Assembly: GCA_964370575.1 (NCBI GenBank) | Contig: CAYJJT010000001.1 | Coordinates: forward strand, 1,192-60,988 | Direction of reading: 5' to 3' | DNA length: 59,797 nucleotides | Source of the DNA: an uncultured Muribaculaceae bacterium | Lineage (GTDB): Bacteria; Bacillota_I; Bacilli_A; RF39; UBA660 | Part shown: positions 5,205 through 53,276 of the stretch, one piece after another | Layout: each line of letters starts with the position of its first letter | Numbering within the stretch: position 1 is the stretch's first letter | Notes under the pieces: generated by a model | The model's database searches: none | What the model was told of the DNA's origin: nothing | What the model saw: the letters and a program-made list of their open reading frames with translations, nothing else | Translations under genes and position numbers: made by a program

Positions 5205-6824
5205 CTACATTTCTTCTAATGCTTCTACTCCAATTAAATTTAATGCATTTTTAATTGTCATTGCAGTAGCATAAATTAAATTTACTCTTTCATTTGTACT
5301 TACTGTATCTTCAGTTAGTACTTTTTCATGGGCATAAAAGGCATGAAATAATGTCGCTAAATCATAAACATAATTTGTAATGATATGAGGACTCTTTTTC
5401 AAAGCACTATTCCCTACAGTATATGAAAATTCATATATTTTTGATAATAGTTTTTTACTATATTCACTAGTAAGTGTTTCGTATTTATCTAAAACTTTTA
5501 TCTCATTTTTGTAATTAGCTAATATTGAATGAATTCTAGCATGGGCATAATTTATATAAAATACAGGATTTTCATTTGTATTTTTACACGCTAAATCTAA
5601 ATCAAAGTCTAATTGTGTATCTAAGCTTCTAGATGAAAAGAAATATCTTGTTGCATCTAATCCAACTTCTTCTACTAATTCCATAATTGTTACTGCATTA
5701 CCAGTACGCTTACTCATTTTAACTTCTTCTCCATTACGAACTAATCTTACCATTTGAAGAATTTCTACATCTAATTTATCACTATCATATCCAAGCATAT
5801 TAATACTTGCTTTTAATCTAGGAATATATCCATGATGATCAGCTCCAAATACATTAATTAATTCGTCATATCCACGGCTAAATTTTAAACCATGATAAGC
5901 TATATCTGGTACTAAGTAAGTATATGATTTATCTTTTTTAACAAGTACTCTATCTTTCTCATCTCCATATAAAGTCGTTTTTAAATAAACAGCGTCATCT
6001 TGTTCATATGTATATCCTTCAGTAATAAGTTTATCTAAAGTTTCTTTTACTAGACCACTATCATATAAAGATTGTTCACTACTCCATAAATCAAAATTAG
6101 CACGATAGTTATGTAAATCTTCTTTTATTTGATTTAATAAATAATCTAACCCTTTTTTTCTAAAAACTTTAGAATCTGTAACTTCATTACCTAATTCATC
6201 CTTAATTGTTTTAGCAACAGCAATAATTTCTTTCCCATGGTATCCACCTTCAGGCATATCCTCTAATCTTCCACATAATCCTTCATAACGTGCCTTAATA
6301 GAATTTTCTAAATTACCTATCTGATTACCAGCATCATTTATATAGTATTCACGTGTCACATCAAATCCAGCAAATTTTAAAACTCTTGCCAAACTATCTC
6401 CATAGCTTGCTCCTCTTGCATGACCTAAATGTAATATACCAGTCGGATTAGCACTTACATATTCTATATTTATTTTTTTGTTATTTCCTATATTAATTTT
6501 TCCATAATTTTCTTTTAATTCTATTACTTTATTGATATTATCATATAAATAATCGTTAGTAACATAAAAATTTATAAACCCTGCTCCAGCAATTTCTACT
6601 TTACTAATATGTTTAGAATTTAATTCATTTATTTTCGCTACTATTTCAGAAGCAATATTTCTAGGATTCTTTTTTAAAGTACGCGCAAGTTGCATCGCTA
6701 CATTAGTTGAATAGTCTCCGTATGTAGTATCTTTGGGAATTTCTATAGCTATTTGTTCGATTGTAATTTCTGTATTAGTTTCTGCTAGGACATTATAAAT
6801 TATTTCTTTTAATAATTCTCTCAT
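5205..6824 (-). CDS. argS: Arginine--tRNA ligase
   Basis: Class I HIGH-type motif (SANPTGILHLGHARG) and MSKRTG (KMSKS), with the arginyl-type N- and C-terminal domains. Confidence 0.97.
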   Translation of the reverse strand: MRELLKEIIYNVLAETNTEITIEQIAIEIPKDTTYGDYSTNVAMQLARTLKKNPRNIASEIVAKINELNSKHISKVEIAGAGFINFYVTNDYLYDNINKVIELKENYGKINIGNNKKINIEYVSANPTGILHLGHARGASYGDSLARVLKFAGFDVTREYYINDAGNQIGNLENSIKARYEGLCGRLEDMPEGGYHGKEIIAVAKTIKDELGNEVTDSKVFRKKGLDYLLNQIKEDLHNYRANFDLWSSEQSLYDSGLVKETLDKLITEGYTYEQDDAVYLKTTLYGDEKDRVLVKKDKSYTYLVPDIAYHGLKFSRGYDELINVFGADHHGYIPRLKASINMLGYDSDKLDVEILQMVRLVRNGEEVKMSKRTGNAVTIMELVEEVGLDATRYFFSSRSLDTQLDFDLDLACKNTNENPVFYINYAHARIHSILANYKNEIKVLDKYETLTSEYSKKLLSKIYEFSYTVGNSALKKSPHIITNYVYDLATLFHAFYAHEKVLTEDTVSTNERVNLIYATAMTIKNALNLIGVEALEEM

Positions 6825-24436: not shown

Positions 24437-24465
24437 TTGACATGACATTTATACAATGATACTAT
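24437..24465 (+). promoter_or_regulatory. Sigma-A type promoter of orphan gene A
   Basis: TTGACA, then 17 nt, then TACTAT, with an upstream TG (extended -10). Confidence 0.55.
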
Positions 24466-33345: not shown

Positions 33346-33879
33346 TTAATATAAATGATTACCAACTTTATAATTTGTAGGAATTATCCCTTTTATACTC
33401 ATATCTATCCAACTATTTAAAGCACATTCAAATCGTGTTTCTGAAAACATAAAATTAACTATATTTTGATAATCAGGAAAATCACATTTATTCATGTTTA
33501 AATATTTAATTATATTTCTAGGATCTATATATATGTCTTTTTCTATTTGTAAGTAAATTGAATCTATTATTAGATTATAAACTATTTCTAAATCTTCACT
33601 AAAAGCTATATCTATATCATCACTAAAAATTATTTCTTCATTTAATGATACAGCATCTTTTCTTTTATAAATAGTAGCTAAAATCCAAGTTTTAGCAAAC
33701 TTCATTTTCTCTATAGTTATTAAATCAACAACTATTTCATCTGTTTCTTTATTTACTACTGTAACACTACCATCATTATTATATGCAATAAAATACTTCA
33801 TATAAGTATTTTCTAAAGATCTAAAGTTAAAATTAAATTTTTTATACAACTCACTAAATAATGGAATATCTTCTTTCAT
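33346..33879 (-). CDS. Hypothetical protein (177 aa)
   Basis: An ORF with RBS AGAGGTG. No recognisable motif. Confidence 0.45.
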   Translation of the reverse strand: MKEDIPLFSELYKKFNFNFRSLENTYMKYFIAYNNDGSVTVVNKETDEIVVDLITIEKMKFAKTWILATIYKRKDAVSLNEEIIFSDDIDIAFSEDLEIVYNLIIDSIYLQIEKDIYIDPRNIIKYLNMNKCDFPDYQNIVNFMFSETRFECALNSWIDMSIKGIIPTNYKVGNHLY

Positions 33880-40494: not shown

Positions 40495-40965
40495 TTACAC
40501 TAATTCTATAATTTCAAATAATAAATCAATAACCAAGTTTGCTACTAATAACTTTTCTAGTTCTCTATTTCCTAACGCTAAACTTACAGTTTTATAAAAT
40601 GACTTATTACTTACTCTATCATATACACATATATAAGTAATTCCACCTTCTACACCTAATTGACCAGTAATTCCAACTCCAATATCACTTTTAGCGTTTA
40701 AAGAAGCGTTTAAAGCCATATCTAATGACACTTCTTTACTATAGACAGTATACTTATCAATTAGTTCACTACTTACACCTAAATCTATCTTTGACTGACT
40801 ACTATAAGTCACAAATCCATAATTAAAAATATTACTACTACCTTCAATATTAGTTATAATGTTACTAACATATCCTCCAGTACATGACTCCATTACTGCA
40901 ATAGTCTTATTTTTATTTAAAAACCATCTATATACTAACTCTAACTTCTCTTTATTTAATTTCAT
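40495..40965 (-). CDS. pncC: CinA C-terminal domain protein / nicotinamide-nucleotide amidohydrolase
   Basis: AVMESCTGG, and a GVGITG-type motif (IGVGITGQLG). Confidence 0.75.
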   Translation of the reverse strand: MKLNKEKLELVYRWFLNKNKTIAVMESCTGGYVSNIITNIEGSSNIFNYGFVTYSSQSKIDLGVSSELIDKYTVYSKEVSLDMALNASLNAKSDIGVGITGQLGVEGGITYICVYDRVSNKSFYKTVSLALGNRELEKLLVANLVIDLLFEIIELV

Positions 40966-40988
40966 ATCATCACCATCTAAATTATATC

Positions 40989-41023
40989 ATAAAAAAAGAA
41001 AACTATAAGTTTTCTTTTAATAT
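40989..41023. repeat. 35-bp direct repeat, copy A (duplicate of the pflA 3' end and terminator)
   Basis: ataaaaaaagaaaactataagttttcttttaatat is identical to 42482-42516. It contains the hairpin gaaaact-ataa-gttttc. Confidence 0.9.
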
Positions 41024-42381
41024 GTTTTTGAACTATCTTCCATATCCATTTCTAATTCATTACTATCCACAGATTTAATAAATGGTATTTTAGGATTACT
41101 AGCAAGTTTATTCATAGCTTTTGCTAGTATATCTTTAGTTTTATTAACAAATTTTTCCTTAAGAGAGGCATTTTTAGATAATTTTACATTGTTCAATACT
41201 TTTTCTTCAAATTTTGGTACATATATATTGTGATATTCTTTTAAAGTCATATTCTCTTTACATGGTATACGTTCATCCCCAACTGTTATAAAATATTCCA
41301 TTTCTCTTGTTTCATCATTGAAATTAAAAGTATCTGCTTCAATCATATTATTAAAACTAGCATTGCGCTTATTTTCAAATTGCTCTACTGTTTCAATTGG
41401 ACCTACAATATTTCCTTCTTCCATATTTCTAACATAATTACTATAATCTTTATCTAACATACTATTGTAATCAGATAATTGTCCATTTTGATTATTCTTA
41501 ACTAAACTATCAATTAATTCTATTTTCTTTTGATTACCATTATATTTAATATTTTCGTTATTATATTTTTCTTCTAAACTTAATCTTATATTATCATCTG
41601 CATAAGTAATTTCCTCATGTAATTTTTCCATAGCAGATAAATTTCTAGAAATTTGATTTTCTTTATTAATTAATTCACTTTTTAAATTCATAGCCATTTC
41701 ATCTGCTTGAATACTTCTATCATAATCATAAGCTTTGTTTCTTAAATCAGATAATTTTCTACTTTCTTGTGAATACACTTTTGAATAGTGTTCTTCTTTC
41801 AAAAAATTACGATGCGGTTTTAAAACATTTTTACTATTTTCTATTTTATCCACTTTATCATTTAAAGTTTCCCAAACAGAATTTCTTTCATCGCTAGGCA
41901 ATTGTTCAATTTTTGATAATAAATTTTTATAATAACTTAAATAATACTCTTTTGTGATATCATCAGTTATTTCATCTTCTCCAATATATTTTCCGTTTAA
42001 TTCGATACTCTTTTGAACATTTCCTTCATAATTAGCTGGTGGAAAAGTCCAATCAAAAGACTTTTCGATTCTATAATCTATCTCTTTTTTACCTTGAGAT
42101 TCTCTTTCTGTACTTATTTTTTCAATATTACCAGAATTTTTTATAAATTCTAATAAACCTTCTAATTTTACCTGATTACCATAAAAACTATCACCTATCA
42201 TCTCATATACACTGTCTGGAATAAAATTATTTTCCGTATATTTTTTATATGTATCTTGATTTTTTAAATTATTTTTTACTATTTGCAATTTATCTGACAA
42301 GTTTCTAGCTGACCAGCTTAAACGACTACTTAGTGAATCAATTTCACCCATAATTTCTTTTACTACTTCATTTTTTTTCAT
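41017..42381 (-). CDS. Hypothetical 454-aa Asn/Lys/Glu-rich protein (cassette gene)
   Basis: A long ORF with RBS GGAGG 7 nt before the ATG. No signal peptide or TM, and no recognisable motif. Confidence 0.6.
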   Translation of the reverse strand: MKKNEVVKEIMGEIDSLSSRLSWSARNLSDKLQIVKNNLKNQDTYKKYTENNFIPDSVYEMIGDSFYGNQVKLEGLLEFIKNSGNIEKISTERESQGKKEIDYRIEKSFDWTFPPANYEGNVQKSIELNGKYIGEDEITDDITKEYYLSYYKNLLSKIEQLPSDERNSVWETLNDKVDKIENSKNVLKPHRNFLKEEHYSKVYSQESRKLSDLRNKAYDYDRSIQADEMAMNLKSELINKENQISRNLSAMEKLHEEITYADDNIRLSLEEKYNNENIKYNGNQKKIELIDSLVKNNQNGQLSDYNSMLDKDYSNYVRNMEEGNIVGPIETVEQFENKRNASFNNMIEADTFNFNDETREMEYFITVGDERIPCKENMTLKEYHNIYVPKFEEKVLNNVKLSKNASLKEKFVNKTKDILAKAMNKLASNPKIPFIKSVDSNELEMDMEDSSKTY

Positions 42382-42410
42382 AAAATTTCCTCCAAATTCA
42401 TTTATTAATA

Positions 42411-42440
42411 AAACTAAACCCCCCCCCCCGAATTTGTCAA
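42411..42440 (-). promoter_or_regulatory. Candidate promoter with a G11 tract in its spacer
   Basis: Minus strand reads TTGACA (42435-42440), AATTC, G11 (42419-42429), TT, TAGTTT (42411-42416). Confidence 0.5.
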
Positions 42441-42481
42441 CTTGTTTTACATTGAATTTACAACCAACTTAATTGATTATT

Positions 42482-42516
42482 ATAAAAAAAGAAAACTATA
42501 AGTTTTCTTTTAATAT
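42482..42516. repeat. 35-bp direct repeat, copy B (authentic pflA 3' end and terminator)
   Basis: Identical to 40989-41023. Here it encodes the last pflA codons (..LKENL*). Confidence 0.9.
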
Positions 42517-43215
42517 ATTATATAATTCATTACATCTATCCTTATCCATAGCCGGTAATCCATCTAAACGATAATTCAATCCAAGTTCTTTATATTTATG
42601 TACTCCAAATAATTCATATGGTAAAAATTCTATTTTATCTACATTCGGAATTAGTTTGATATATTGAGCTAGTCCTAAGATATATTCTTCATTATCATTT
42701 AAAGTTGGAACCATAACTTGGCGCAACCATAATTTTTTATTTTTTTCAATACAGAGATTTAAAAATTCTATTGATTTATCAATTGAGCAAAGTGTTAATT
42801 CCTTATATTCTTTACTACGATAATCTTTTATATCATAAATAATTAAATCAGTATAATCTAATATATCATTTACATTAGAGTTAAATATTCCTGCAGTATC
42901 AATAGCTGTATGAATATTTTCTTGTTTACATAGTTTTAAACATTGTAATAAAAATTGACTTTGATATAATGGTTCTCCTCCTGAAAAAGTAACCCCACCA
43001 TTTTTTCCAAAATAAGCTTTATAATTTTTAATTTTATTTATTAATTCTTCTGGAGTTAATGTGATATTACTTTTAGAAGCCCATGTATCTGGATTATGAC
43101 AAAATGAACATCTAAGAGAACAACCTTGCATAAATACAACATACCTTATTCCAGGACCATCTAATAATCCTGCGGTTTCAATGGAATGAATATAACCTAT
43201 ATTATTTTTTTTCAT
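42496..43215 (-). CDS. pflA: Pyruvate formate-lyase activating enzyme
   Basis: Radical [14 protein letters not shown] and [10 protein letters not shown] motifs. Overlaps the pflB stop. Confidence 0.95.
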
Positions 43216-45424
43216 GAAAAGTTCTACTTATTACTTCTAATTGTTGTTCCTTATTAAGTCTATTAAAATGCACTGCATATCCACTAACTCTTATTGTTAA
43301 GTTAGGATAATTATCTGGATTTTCCATAGCATCAATAAGTGTTTCACGGTTAAATACATTAACGTTTAAGTGATGTCCACCTTTATTAAAATATCCATCA
43401 AGTATGTTTGCTAAATTATCTATTTGTTCTTCTTCTGTATTTCCAAGTGCACTTGGTACAATAGAGAATGTATTACTAACTCCATCTTCGCAACAATCTT
43501 TATAAGAAATTTTACTTACTGAATTTAGTGAAGCAAGTGCTCCCATTTTATCTCTACCATGCATTGGATTGGCACCTGGAGCAAATGCTACACCTGCTTT
43601 TCTTCCGTCCGGTGTAGCTCCAGTTTTTTTACCATAAACTACATTTGAAGTTATAGTTAATATTGAAAGAGTATGTTTAGCATTTCTATATAATGGATGT
43701 GTTGTTAATTCATCATAGAATTTTTTTGTTATTTCAGAAGCAATCATATCTACACGATCATCATCGTTACCATATTGAGGATATTCTCCTTCAATTTCAA
43801 AGTCAACTGTAATTCCATCTTCATCACGTATAGGTTTTACTTTTGCATACTTAATTGCAGATAAAGAATCTGCAACAACTGATAAACCTGCTGCTCCAAA
43901 CGCCATTAGTCTATCAACTATAGTATCATGAAGTGCCATTTGACCTGCTTCATATGCATATTTGTCATGCATATAGTGAATAATATTCATTGCATCAACA
44001 TATGTTTTAGCAATTTTTTTCAACATAATATCAAAACTATTAATAACTTTATCATAATCTAAATATTCATCAGTCATAACCTCAATAGAATCTACTACTT
44101 TTATTTTCTTTATTTCATCTACTCCACCATTAATTGCATACAATAATGCTTTTGCTAAATTACATCTTGCTCCAAAATATTGCATTTGTTTACCAACTTC
44201 CATAGCTGATACACAACAAGCAATAGCATAGTCATTACCATACATAGGACTCATTAAATCATCATTTTCATATTGAATGGCATCTGTTTTTATACTCATT
44301 TTACTGCAATACTTTTTAAAATTTTCAGGCAACTTTTCACTCCATAATACAGTCATGTTAGGTTCAGGTGATGGACCTAAATTAGTAAGCGTGTGTAAAT
44401 ATCTAAATGAGTTTTTAGTTACTAAACTCTTACCTTCTTTTGTAACACCAGCAATAGACTCTGTAACCCAAGTTGGATCACCAGCAAATAGTTCATTATA
44501 TTCTGGAGTTCTTAAATGACGAGCTATTCTAAGTTTAATTATAAATTGATCTATAATTTCTTGAGCTTCGCCTTCAGAAATATCACCATTTACTAAATCA
44601 TTTTCAATATAAATATCTAAAAATGTAGAAGTTCTTCCCAAACTCATAGCTGCACCATTGTTTTCTTTTATTGCCGCTAAATAAGCAAAATAAACCCATT
44701 GTACTGCTTCACGAGCATTACTTGCTGGTTTTGAAATATCAAATCCATATTTAAGAGCCATCAAAGTCATATCTTCTAAAGCTTTAATTTGTTCTGTAAC
44801 TTCTTCGCGCAATCTAATTACAACTGTGGTAACATTATTTACTAATTGCTCTAAGTCATATTTTTTTGCTTTTATTAATAAATCTGTACCATATAACGCT
44901 ACTCTTCTATAATCACCAATAATTCTTCCACGTCCATATGCATCAGGCAAACCTGTTAATAAACCAGTTTTTCTAGCCATTTTAATATCATTTGTATAAG
45001 CTGAAAATACTCCATCATTATGTGTTTTACGATATCTAAAACTATCTTCTACACTTAAATCTAGTGTATATCCATAACTCTCAACAGCACTTTTACAAGT
45101 ACGCATACCACCAAAAGGATTTACTATCCTTTTTAATGGTTCATCAGTTTGAAGTCCTACAATCACTTCATTTTCGCGACTTATATATCCTGCATCAAAA
45201 TTATTGATTCCCGATATATTTTTAGTATCAATTTTATAAACACCACGTTCTAATTCTTCTTTTAATAATGGCTTTAAAGTCTCCATTACTCTTTCAGTTT
45301 TAATACTAGTATTCGCTAAAAATGATTCATCTCCGGTATATTCAGTATAATTTTCTTTAATAAAATCTTCTACATCGATTTGGTTTTTCCATTTTGTTCC
45401 ATTAAAATTTTCCCATTCTTTCAT
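43202..45424 (-). CDS. pflB: Formate C-acetyltransferase (pyruvate formate-lyase)
   Basis: 740 aa, with active-site IACCVSAM and the glycyl radical motif TIRVSGYAV. Confidence 0.97.
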
Positions 45425-51788: not shown

Positions 51789-53276
51789 TTATTTCCAATA
51801 ACAAATTATATTATAATTATTTTCAAACTTATCAACTACTATATATTTGATAAGTTTTTCAATTATACTTCTATTTAATTTATTTGTTATTTCATCTACA
51901 TCTATTTTTTTAACTTTACTTTTTTGCAGATGCTCTAATCTTTCATTATATATTAATAGTTTATTGGTGTAATTATCATTCAACAAATTAAACTGTTCAA
52001 AAGTAATAATGTTATTTAATTTATCATCATAAATACTTTTAAATTTATCGTTAAGTATTTCGATTTTATTTAAAATTCTATTTTTTTCTTTACTTTTATC
52101 CATTAATAGATCATTTTCAACATCATTAATCAAACTTGATGGTGAATATTTTAAAAATATAATTTTTTCAACAACATCATATAAATAGTCATACCTAATT
52201 GAATTATTATATGTACAATACTTATTTCTACATGTTAAATAAGTATATTTATTTGTAGAATTTTTATTCATATAATTACCACAATTTTTACATTTAATTT
52301 TTCTTGAAAATATAGATACTTTTTTATTTTTAGTATTTACTTTTCCTCTATCAAATCTTAATTTCTGAACTTTAATAAATATTTTTTTTGAAATTATCGC
52401 CTCATGAGTATCATATTTTTTAATCCAAAATTTTTTATCTTTTTTTATAATTTTTTTATTTTTATAACTAGAAGTTGTTCGTTTTCCTTGAATTAGAACT
52501 CCGGTATATATTTCATTTGTTAAAATACTTTTTACAGAACTACTACTCCATTTTATTTCTTCAATATCTTTTGTACTAACAATATTTATCTTATATCCAT
52601 TTTCCCGCTTATAAAGTGAAGGAGGTGATATAAAGTTATTATTTAAATAATCAGCTATTTTACTATAACCATATCCATTAATATATAACTGATATATTTT
52701 TTTTATAATATTACTTGCATATGAATCTACTTCTAATTTATTATTATTTTCTCCATCTACTCTATAACCATAAGGAGCAAATGGAGAAATAAACTCCCCT
52801 TTTTGCATTTTAATTTTAAATGCAGATCTAATATTATTCGATACCTCTTCCAAATACCACTCATTTACTAAACTATTAATTTGTCTACTCTTTTTCGTAT
52901 ATATATTATCTGTATCTACATTATCTACTAAACCAATAAATCTAACATTCCACTCTATAAATTTATTATGTAAATATTTCTCTACTATTTCAATATCTCT
53001 AGAAAATCTACTTTGACTTTTACATAGAACTATATCTACATAACCATTTTTACAATCCTCAATCATATTTTCAAATTCTTCTCTATATGATCCAGCACCT
53101 GATAAATCTTCGTCACAGTAAACTTTATAAAGCTTCCAATTATCAGTTTTATCTATTTTATCAAGTAACATATTTTTTTGATTTTTAATACTTTCACTAT
53201 ACTCATATATATTTGCTTTATCATTATCTTCATTTGATAACCTTAAATATACTGCTACATTTAATTTTTTTTCCAT
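51789..53276 (-). CDS. Large serine recombinase (TndX/TnpX-like)
   Basis: Catalytic region VAVYLRLSNED...ESIKNQK...SGAGSYREEF...KSQSRFSRD, a recombinase domain, the zinc ribbon CKNCGNYMNKNSTNKYTYLTCRNKYC, and a C-terminal coiled coil. Confidence 0.85.
   Translation of the reverse strand: MEKKLNVAVYLRLSNEDNDKANIYEYSESIKNQKNMLLDKIDKTDNWKLYKVYCDEDLSGAGSYREEFENMIEDCKNGYVDIVLCKSQSRFSRDIEIVEKYLHNKFIEWNVRFIGLVDNVDTDNIYTKKSRQINSLVNEWYLEEVSNNIRSAFKIKMQKGEFISPFAPYGYRVDGENNNKLEVDSYASNIIKKIYQLYINGYGYSKIADYLNNNFISPPSLYKRENGYKINIVSTKDIEEIKWSSSSVKSILTNEIYTGVLIQGKRTTSSYKNKKIIKKDKKFWIKKYDTHEAIISKKIFIKVQKLRFDRGKVNTKNKKVSIFSRKIKCKNCGNYMNKNSTNKYTYLTCRNKYCTYNNSIRYDYLYDVVEKIIFLKYSPSSLINDVENDLLMDKSKEKNRILNKIEILNDKFKSIYDDKLNNIITFEQFNLLNDNYTNKLLIYNERLEHLQKSKVKKIDVDEITNKLNRSIIEKLIKYIVVDKFENNYNIICYWK

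Follow-up and report, generated by a model that had tools for sequence, protein, structure and literature searches.

To our knowledge, phase variation by slippage has been documented almost entirely in cultured pathogens. Repeats within the promoter spacer give ON/OFF switching of vlp in Mycoplasma hyorhinis (poly-A) and of Vmm in M. mycoides (a TA repeat), and TA repeats occupy the promoter spacer of hifA/B in Haemophilus influenzae. The hif switch is cited in PMC5084427 (ref. 18), where the principle that repeat tracts alter the spacing of promoter elements is laid out. In porA of Neisseria meningitidis an 11G tract lies between the -35 and -10 boxes, and surface expression is 2-fold lower at 10G and 13-fold lower at 9G (PMC3639595). 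This length-graded poly-G spacer is a precedent for the kind of promoter homopolymer switch that an earlier note on the present DNA had called established. In the AT-rich genomes of Campylobacter jejuni and Helicobacter, rare G/C runs of at least 8 nt are hypermutable sites (PMC8355987).

The locus considered here lies in the window (the whole stretch of 59,797 nt that was analysed, with a GC content of 25.7 %), upstream of an orphan gene of 454 codons, orf454. As in porA (and also opc and fetA, poly-C), a G/C homopolymer of approximately 9-11 nt is found between -35 and -10, and porA, like orf454, is a single gene with its own promoter. However, porA encodes a major outer-membrane antigen of a pathogen and its switching is proven, whereas the window has a cytoplasmic-looking orphan behind a weak -10, in an uncultured gut bacterium of Gram-positive type, and switching is proposed by analogy. 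The vlp, Vmm and hif systems likewise have a simple repeat between -35 and -10 and AT-rich, small-genome hosts, but their repeats are of A or TA and serve surface lipoproteins or fimbriae, whereas the window has a G-run in a very AT-rich genome. A rare, hypermutable run in an AT-rich genome is also the likeness to the poly-G/C tracts of Campylobacter and Helicobacter; those, however, are mostly intragenic, act by frameshift and are numerous per genome, whereas the window contains one in 60 kb.

Anatomy of the tract and its probable promoter

On the minus strand, the region between pflA and orf454 reads TAG (the pflA stop)-TTTTCTTTTTTTATAATAATCAATTAAGTTGGTTGTAAATTCAATGTAAAACAAG-TTGACA-AATTC-G11-TT-TAGTTT-TATTAATAAATGAATTT-GGAGG-AAATTTT-ATG. 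A -35 hexamer of perfect consensus, TTGACA (42435..42440, minus), is followed by the 5-nt linker AATTC (42430..42434, minus), the candidate slippage tract itself (42419..42429, minus; C11 on the plus strand), the dinucleotide TT (42417-42418, minus) and the best -10 candidate, TAGTTT (42411..42416, minus). The tract thus has the conserved TTGACA 5 nt upstream and the weak -10 candidate 2 nt downstream. A Shine-Dalgarno sequence, GGAGG (42389..42393, minus), precedes by 7 nt the ATG of orf454 (42379-42381, minus), and the tract lies 37 nt upstream of this start codon. These coordinates confirm the layout given in the earlier note, and its spacer arithmetic was correct on recheck, with 18 nt between TTGACA and TAGTTT at G11, 17 nt at G10 and 19 nt at G12. 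A count also upheld its statement, made by eye, that apart from G11 the window has no G/C homopolymer of more than 5 nt. Under independent-base and first-order Markov models, between 6e-5 and 8e-5 G/C runs of 11 nt or more are expected in the window, and no other G/C run of at least 7 nt was found in approximately 430 kb of related loci. The run is uninterrupted over its 11 nt, where a length of about 8 nt or more is capable of slippage.

Of the two proposed promoter boxes, the -35 is perfect and conserved and the -10 is weak. TAGTTT agrees with TATAAT at 3/6 positions, for which reason a consensus promoter scanner called no promoter at the tract; the matching positions (T1, A2 and T6) are the three most conserved of the -10. 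The hexamer that directly abuts the run, TTTAGT (42413-42418, minus), is without the A at position 2, an essential base. The promoter may therefore have been re-registered (to TAGTTT, at 18 nt) or have decayed, and it is in this deviant -10 that the switch hypothesis is weakest for the window locus. TTGACA occurs 19 times in the window, and four of these hexamers are intergenic, that of orf454 being one. In two of the other three, at 24437 and 26269, a spacer of exactly 17 nt leads to TACTAT (preceded by a TG) and to TAATAT, respectively, which indicates that canonical sigma-A promoters with a 17-nt optimum are in use.

Frameshift-type switching was judged irrelevant, as the tract is intergenic. 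With G9 or G12 the reading frame of orf454 would extend back to the TTG in the -35 box, adding 20 residues, but no Shine-Dalgarno sequence precedes this TTG. No RNA family of Rfam was found in the window. A 7-codon upstream ORF, ATGAATTTGGAGGAAATTTTATGA (MNLEEIL*; 42379-42402, minus), spans the Shine-Dalgarno sequence and its stop overlaps the orf454 start (ATGA); in AT-rich sequence this is probably due to chance.

Gene insulation and the sister genome

The order of genes is ligA-pflB-pflA-orf454-cinA-orf245, followed on the opposite strand by genes for a metallophosphatase and a CPBP-family protease, and then by rimP-nusA-infB. The ligA-pflB-pflA order is kept in relatives. Downstream of pflB (43202-45424), pflA (42496..43215, minus) encodes the pyruvate formate-lyase activating enzyme of 239 aa (Pfam Radical_SAM and Fer4_12). 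The next gene, orf454 (41017..42381, minus), encodes a mostly helical protein rich in Asn, Lys and Glu, and its downstream neighbour is a cinA-like gene for 156 aa (40495..40965, minus; Pfam CinA, E = 1e-27). The flanks are therefore as described before, with a PflA-type activase upstream and a 454-aa ORF that has neither a known match nor a hydrophobic segment. NusA, which is encoded 4 kb away, is 50-62 % identical to proteins of uncultured "Bacilli" or "Tenericutes" MAGs from the gut of deer, mouse, rabbit and human, and 95 % identical to that of a single close relative. The window also encodes a class A penicillin-binding protein and EzrA, and hence the organism has a cell wall. Elsewhere in the window, a large serine recombinase of 495 aa with the domains Resolvase, Recombinase and Zn_ribbon_recom (51789-53276, minus) may be a sign of an integrated element or of a segment that can invert.

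The closest NusA belongs to the MAG GCA_964369865.1, hereafter the sister genome. It is titled 'uncultured Muribaculaceae bacterium' (Bacteroidota), and its genes and GC content of 25-27 % fit low-GC gut Bacilli; the title is probably a taxonomic mislabel. Its pflA was found through a search with PflA. Identity to the window is 95 % for NusA, 75 % for PflA (P0004) and 44 % for orf454 (P0002). A 177-aa ORF beside infB (33346-33879, minus) is 46 % identical to its sister orthologue, the second fastest-evolving in the block; it is without a Pfam match and contains a 24-nt tandem repeat in 2.5 copies (33579-33637).

Transcription signals separate orf454 from both of its neighbours. The pflA gene ends in an intrinsic terminator, the hairpin AAAGAAAAC-TTATA-GTTTTCTTT plus a T7 run, which takes in the last pflA codons and forms part of the first copy of a direct repeat (42478..42519, minus; overlapping the pflA stop codon). 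The second copy (40985..41026, minus) is the orf454 terminator hairpin, directly after the orf454 stop. The two copies are identical over 35 nt and share 95 % identity over 42 nt. With an 11-bp stem and a U7 run at the 3' end of a gene, the duplicated hairpin has the form of a rho-independent terminator; copy 1 folds at -11.5 kcal/mol (z = -4.95, 0/200 shuffles as stable) and copy 2 at -13.5 kcal/mol (z = -2.52). The terminator of pflA was missed by the scanner because its stem has fewer than three G-C pairs. In the sister genome the hairpin is kept after pflA, and it is also found after the orf454 orthologue (contig L001, 1462-1490). Repeat copy 2 is followed by a perfect extended -10 of cinA, TGATATAAT (40981..40989, minus), which reads TGTTATAAT in the sister, and boxes of the TGnTAnnnT type lie upstream of cinA in other lineages too. 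Since a terminator closes pflA and a separate promoter serves cinA, orf454 is monocistronic and needs a promoter at the tract; on this arrangement of signals, it requires one within the 100 nt that hold the tract.

The direct repeat brackets a unit of 1,493 bp that consists of the G-tract promoter and orf454, and the sister has the same arrangement. Recombination between the repeat copies would delete this promoter-orf454 cassette. At one site GAG is found in both copies of the sister and GAA in both copies of the window, a pattern that suggests concerted evolution. The terminator duplication is absent in other lineages.

At the homologous place the sister genome reads TTGACA-AAATC-G14 (contig L082, 6773-6797, with the -35 box at 6773-6778). 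The comparison of tract length between related genomes, which had been put forward as a check, thus gives 11 in the window vs at least 14 in the sister; as these are the only two genomes that carry the locus, the length variation comes from one comparison, and the sister length is imprecise. The sister assembly is broken at the tract itself. Contig L082 ends 143 nt past pflA, after the terminator, a diverged AT-rich stretch, TTGACA-AAATC-G14-T13 and a low-complexity tail. The contig with the orf454 orthologue, L001, starts 84 nt before the ATG with 51 nt of poly-C (sense strand), then ATAATTTTATTAATAATTAAATGGAGGAAAATT-ATG. The tail of L082 (6784-6863, from G14 on) is a degraded copy of the head of L001, in an alignment that beats 1000/1000 shuffles and 1000/1000 random genomic windows. 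This alignment indicates that the two contigs abut at the tract and that the tail is degraded read-through. In two-colour Illumina chemistry, absence of signal is called as G. The C51 end of L001 (1-51) probably consists, we assume, of such dark-cycle G calls on the opposite strand, from reads that entered the tract from the gene side.

Conservation between the two genomes falls into blocks, namely the terminator (17/17), TTGACAAAWTC (10/11), TTTTATTAATAA (12/12) and the Shine-Dalgarno sequence (9/9, kept in the sister as TGGAGGAAA). The -35, linker and tract are kept, with TTGACAAATTC in the window vs TTGACAAAATC in the sister, where the linker is AAATC. The approximately 43 columns from the terminator to the -35 are about 58 % identical, and gapped. 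On this comparison the tract is a real genomic feature of the lineage, with differing length. Immediately downstream of its run the sister probably reads (T/G)ATAAT, and would thereby have the abutting -10 of the canonical module that is described below. A 7-nt inverted repeat around the window tract (CAAATTC/GAATTTG) was also considered and rejected, being absent from the sister genome.

The orphan, its slot and look-alike promoters

A search of 5.8 billion proteins returned one homologue of orf454, the 44 % identical sister protein P0002, and a profile search of 1.84 billion representatives returned no further homologue. Nor was any relative beyond P0002 found in GTDB genomes, JGI metagenomes, IMG/VR or plasmids. 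No match to orf454 was obtained in Pfam, NCBIfam, PADLOC, PHROGs, the PDB (profile search), plasmids or viral contigs. The same protein is not on record in other assemblies, and the collections hold no further assembly of the species. An AlphaFold2 model built on the 2-sequence alignment had a pLDDT of 42 and was unusable. The protein contains no signal peptide or TM segment (highest 19-residue Kyte-Doolittle value 0.29), so that the cargo is without an export signal, unlike most contingency genes. It is the fastest-evolving in the block, at 44 % identity vs 68-95 % for the other compared genes, with the exception of the 177-aa ORF. A foreign origin of orf454 was rejected: its GC and GC3 are host-typical (z = -0.29) and hence give no hint of a recent transfer.

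The pflA-cinA slot is hypervariable and holds unrelated, lineage-specific genes in related gut Bacilli, whose products evolve fast and are for the most part surface-exposed. In one pair of loci it holds a membrane protein of 306 aa or 312 aa (L090, 4761-5681; L084, 4799-5737), and in L085-L088 proteins of 243 aa and 257 aa that match SpaA weakly and have a C-terminus of the sortase type (L085, 4922-5653; L086, 2136-2909). Between L085 and L086 PflA is 100 % identical, whilst the slot proteins are only 29 % identical. The slot proteins of other lineages showed no homology to orf454. As judged from these sequences, the behaviour of the slot fits a locus under diversifying or fluctuating selection. 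L086 has a G9 in the leader of its slot gene (2068-2076), inside a strong terminator-like hairpin (-24.9 kcal/mol, z = -3.85), and the closely related L085, L087 and L088 read GTGAGGGC at this site. The flanks of that run, TTGCAAAAATG-G9-CGATTTAG, loosely resemble TTGACAAATTC-G11-TTTAG of the window.

Metagenomic contigs were scanned for the exact 20-mer TTGACAAAWTC+G9, which was found in at least 120 stretches; by rough estimate, chance would give a few. The 80 loci among the matches listed (L092-L171) fall into 32 families with unrelated flanks and a GC content of 0.32-0.64. In the 30 family representatives listed, the hexamer that follows the run has the profile T22 A26 W A17 A20 T19, a -10 box, which was absent from the query, and an exact TAnnnT at offset 0 is present in 16/32 families among the matches listed. 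The run length in these listed matches is mostly 9-12, giving a spacer (5+n) of 14-17 nt, and a single gene follows the module at a distance of 25-200 nt. Near-identical alleles among them (approximately 98 % over 300-nt flanks) differ in tract length, as G10/G9, G10/G9 and G9/G11.

The cargo of the listed matches is enriched in N-terminal hydrophobic segments (16/26 cargo families vs 127/501 background ORFs, odds ratio 4.7, p = 1.7e-4). It includes PEP-CTERM proteins, YadA-type trimeric autotransporters (one with ESPR and SLH), a BspA-LRR/Big_3/dockerin protein, an Ig-like surface protein, a SHIRT-domain protein, a type IV pilin, a lipoprotein and a double-glycine-leader peptide; a minority, again among the matches listed, are cytoplasmic NTPases (a DUF697 GTPase and DO-GTPase2). 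The window shares the 11-mer type of these loci (-35 plus linker) and then the G-run, in that TTGACAAATTC is followed by G11, i.e. at least nine G. However, in the metagenomic loci the -10 abuts the run (TTGACA-AAWTC-G(9-12)-TAWAAT), whereas in the window the abutting hexamer is TTTAGT rather than TAnnnT and the usable TAGTTT starts 2 nt further on. Approximately 2/3 of the metagenomic cargo (among the matches listed) is exported or on the surface, whereas that of the window is without a signal peptide. L144 and L150 contain two module copies each, approximately 1.5-1.6 kb apart, with lengths of G12 and G9 in L150.

A scan of phage contigs in which the linker was left free also returned promoters of the form TTGACA-linker-G9-13-TAnnnT; their linkers were diverse, and their spacers measured 14-18 nt in total. 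The 208-kb phage contig UViG_3300015214_000001 (L244, L246, L249) has four copies of a poly-G promoter. The TTGACA-linker-poly-G-TAnnnT design is widespread. A special role of the AAWTC linker was not supported, as it did not occur in this unbiased scan; given the diverse linkers of the phage sample, the shared AAWTC may reflect sampling and not common descent, and it is probably sampling rather than a special cassette. The 15-mers of the module had no match in the literature text searched.

Competing explanations and biological meaning

The reading that we favour, with moderate confidence, is a sigma-A promoter in which a slippage-prone G-run sets the -35/-10 spacing, giving heritable and reversible expression of orf454 that is either graded or ON/OFF. 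Monocistronic orf454 would be driven from a sigma-A-type promoter in whose spacer G11 is the part that varies, and slipped-strand mispairing in replication would add or remove one G. With G10 the spacer would have its optimal 17 nt and expression would be highest; with G11, the assembled length, it has 18 nt and expression would be lower, whilst 12 or more, or 9 or fewer, would leave the promoter poor or off. Clonal lineages would then differ heritably and reversibly in the amount of orf454 product, and the tract would act as a graded or ON/OFF contingency switch. As for the phase-variable switch that the earlier note had proposed, the conserved site, the length difference, the insulated gene and the polymorphic analogues elsewhere speak for it, and the poor -10 against it. 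The tract promoter is probably real, length-variable and of the porA type.

The poor -10 lends itself to another explanation, in which a promoter with a poly-G spacer was inherited and its -10 mutated from TATAAT to TTTAGT, leaving orf454 weakly expressed or dependent on read-through, with a tract that is perhaps mutable and yet no switch. This is somewhat unlikely. The abutting hexamer lacks A2, which 26/30 analogous loci (among the matches listed) possess, the promoter scanner is silent, and the sister seems to keep (T/G)ATAAT after the run, which would make the window the derived state. However, unselected runs should be broken by substitutions, and this one is still uninterrupted over 11 nt at 25.7 % GC; TAGTTT keeps T1, A2 and T6 at a workable spacing of 18 nt (17 nt at G10); and orf454 is intact, with a strong Shine-Dalgarno sequence, its own terminator and no other conserved promoter. 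It is decidedly unlikely that the run is instead a fixed part of the promoter or leader and not a mutational switch, whether as a rigid spacer (affecting basal strength or supercoiling sensitivity), as the source of the G at -14 of an extended -10, as a site of factor binding, or as a pause or RNA element in the leader. Poly-G promoters with normal spacers of 14-18 nt do occur in phage contigs, four of them in one 208-kb phage, and classical phase variation is less expected in phages. Moreover, a lone TATAAT (42484-42479) directly follows the pflA terminator; through it, or through read-through of the terminator, transcription could begin upstream, which would place the tract in the leader, where its length would be irrelevant. 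Yet this TATAAT is not kept in the sister, near-identical alleles differ in the length of the run, as do the window and the sister, and the window run does not abut the -10 and so cannot supply the G at -14. The leader RNA fold is not significant (z = -0.88), and the idea that the tract belongs to an RNA hairpin, an attenuator or a terminator was rejected.

That the run is a sequencing or assembly error, such as a dark-cycle poly-G of two-colour Illumina data or a mis-joining of contig ends, is hardly credible, even though the sister assembly has artefacts of just this kind at the same site (the C51 contig end and the smeared tail). These are best explained by a real, longer tract. An artefact would have refuted the earlier note by its own account, but a genome that was assembled independently has the TTGACA-AAWTC-G(n) junction too, reading TTGACA-AAATC-G14 at the corresponding site, both flanks of the window align colinearly with the two contig ends of the sister, and G11 is shorter than any assembly k-mer and lies inside a 60-kb contig. 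We also think it improbable that the -35/AAWTC/poly-G/-10 unit is a portable, cross-phylum cassette for phase-variable promoters, with a linker kept for mechanistic reasons or spread horizontally, which was captured with a cytoplasmic orf454 (possibly a phage-defence or conflict protein) into the hypervariable slot. If it were so, the duplicated 35-nt terminator could also allow loop-out of the cassette, and contingency control by promoter slippage would be extended to non-surface functions in uncultured commensals.

For the slippage-controlled promoter that we favour, the mechanism is already known from porA; some value is added by its host, by an orphan as cargo, by a slot that is hypervariable and by a signature found across metagenomes. 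The signature, TTGACA followed by a short A/T-rich linker, at least nine G and TAnnnT, is a possible search key for phase-variable genes in metagenomes. It retrieves dozens of independent promoters with polymorphic tracts ahead of adhesins, pilins and PEP-CTERM proteins, from metagenomes and phages, and may prove more useful than the single locus. Long G-tracts break short-read assemblies and leave poly-G/C contig ends, hence such loci are systematically under-assembled. The candidate described here belongs to an uncultured gut bacterium of low GC content, from the class Bacilli, and involves a lineage-specific orphan in a slot that diversifies even within species. If confirmed, it would mean that such commensals also bet-hedge by stochastic promoter switching, and it would mark orf454 as a gene under fluctuating selection.
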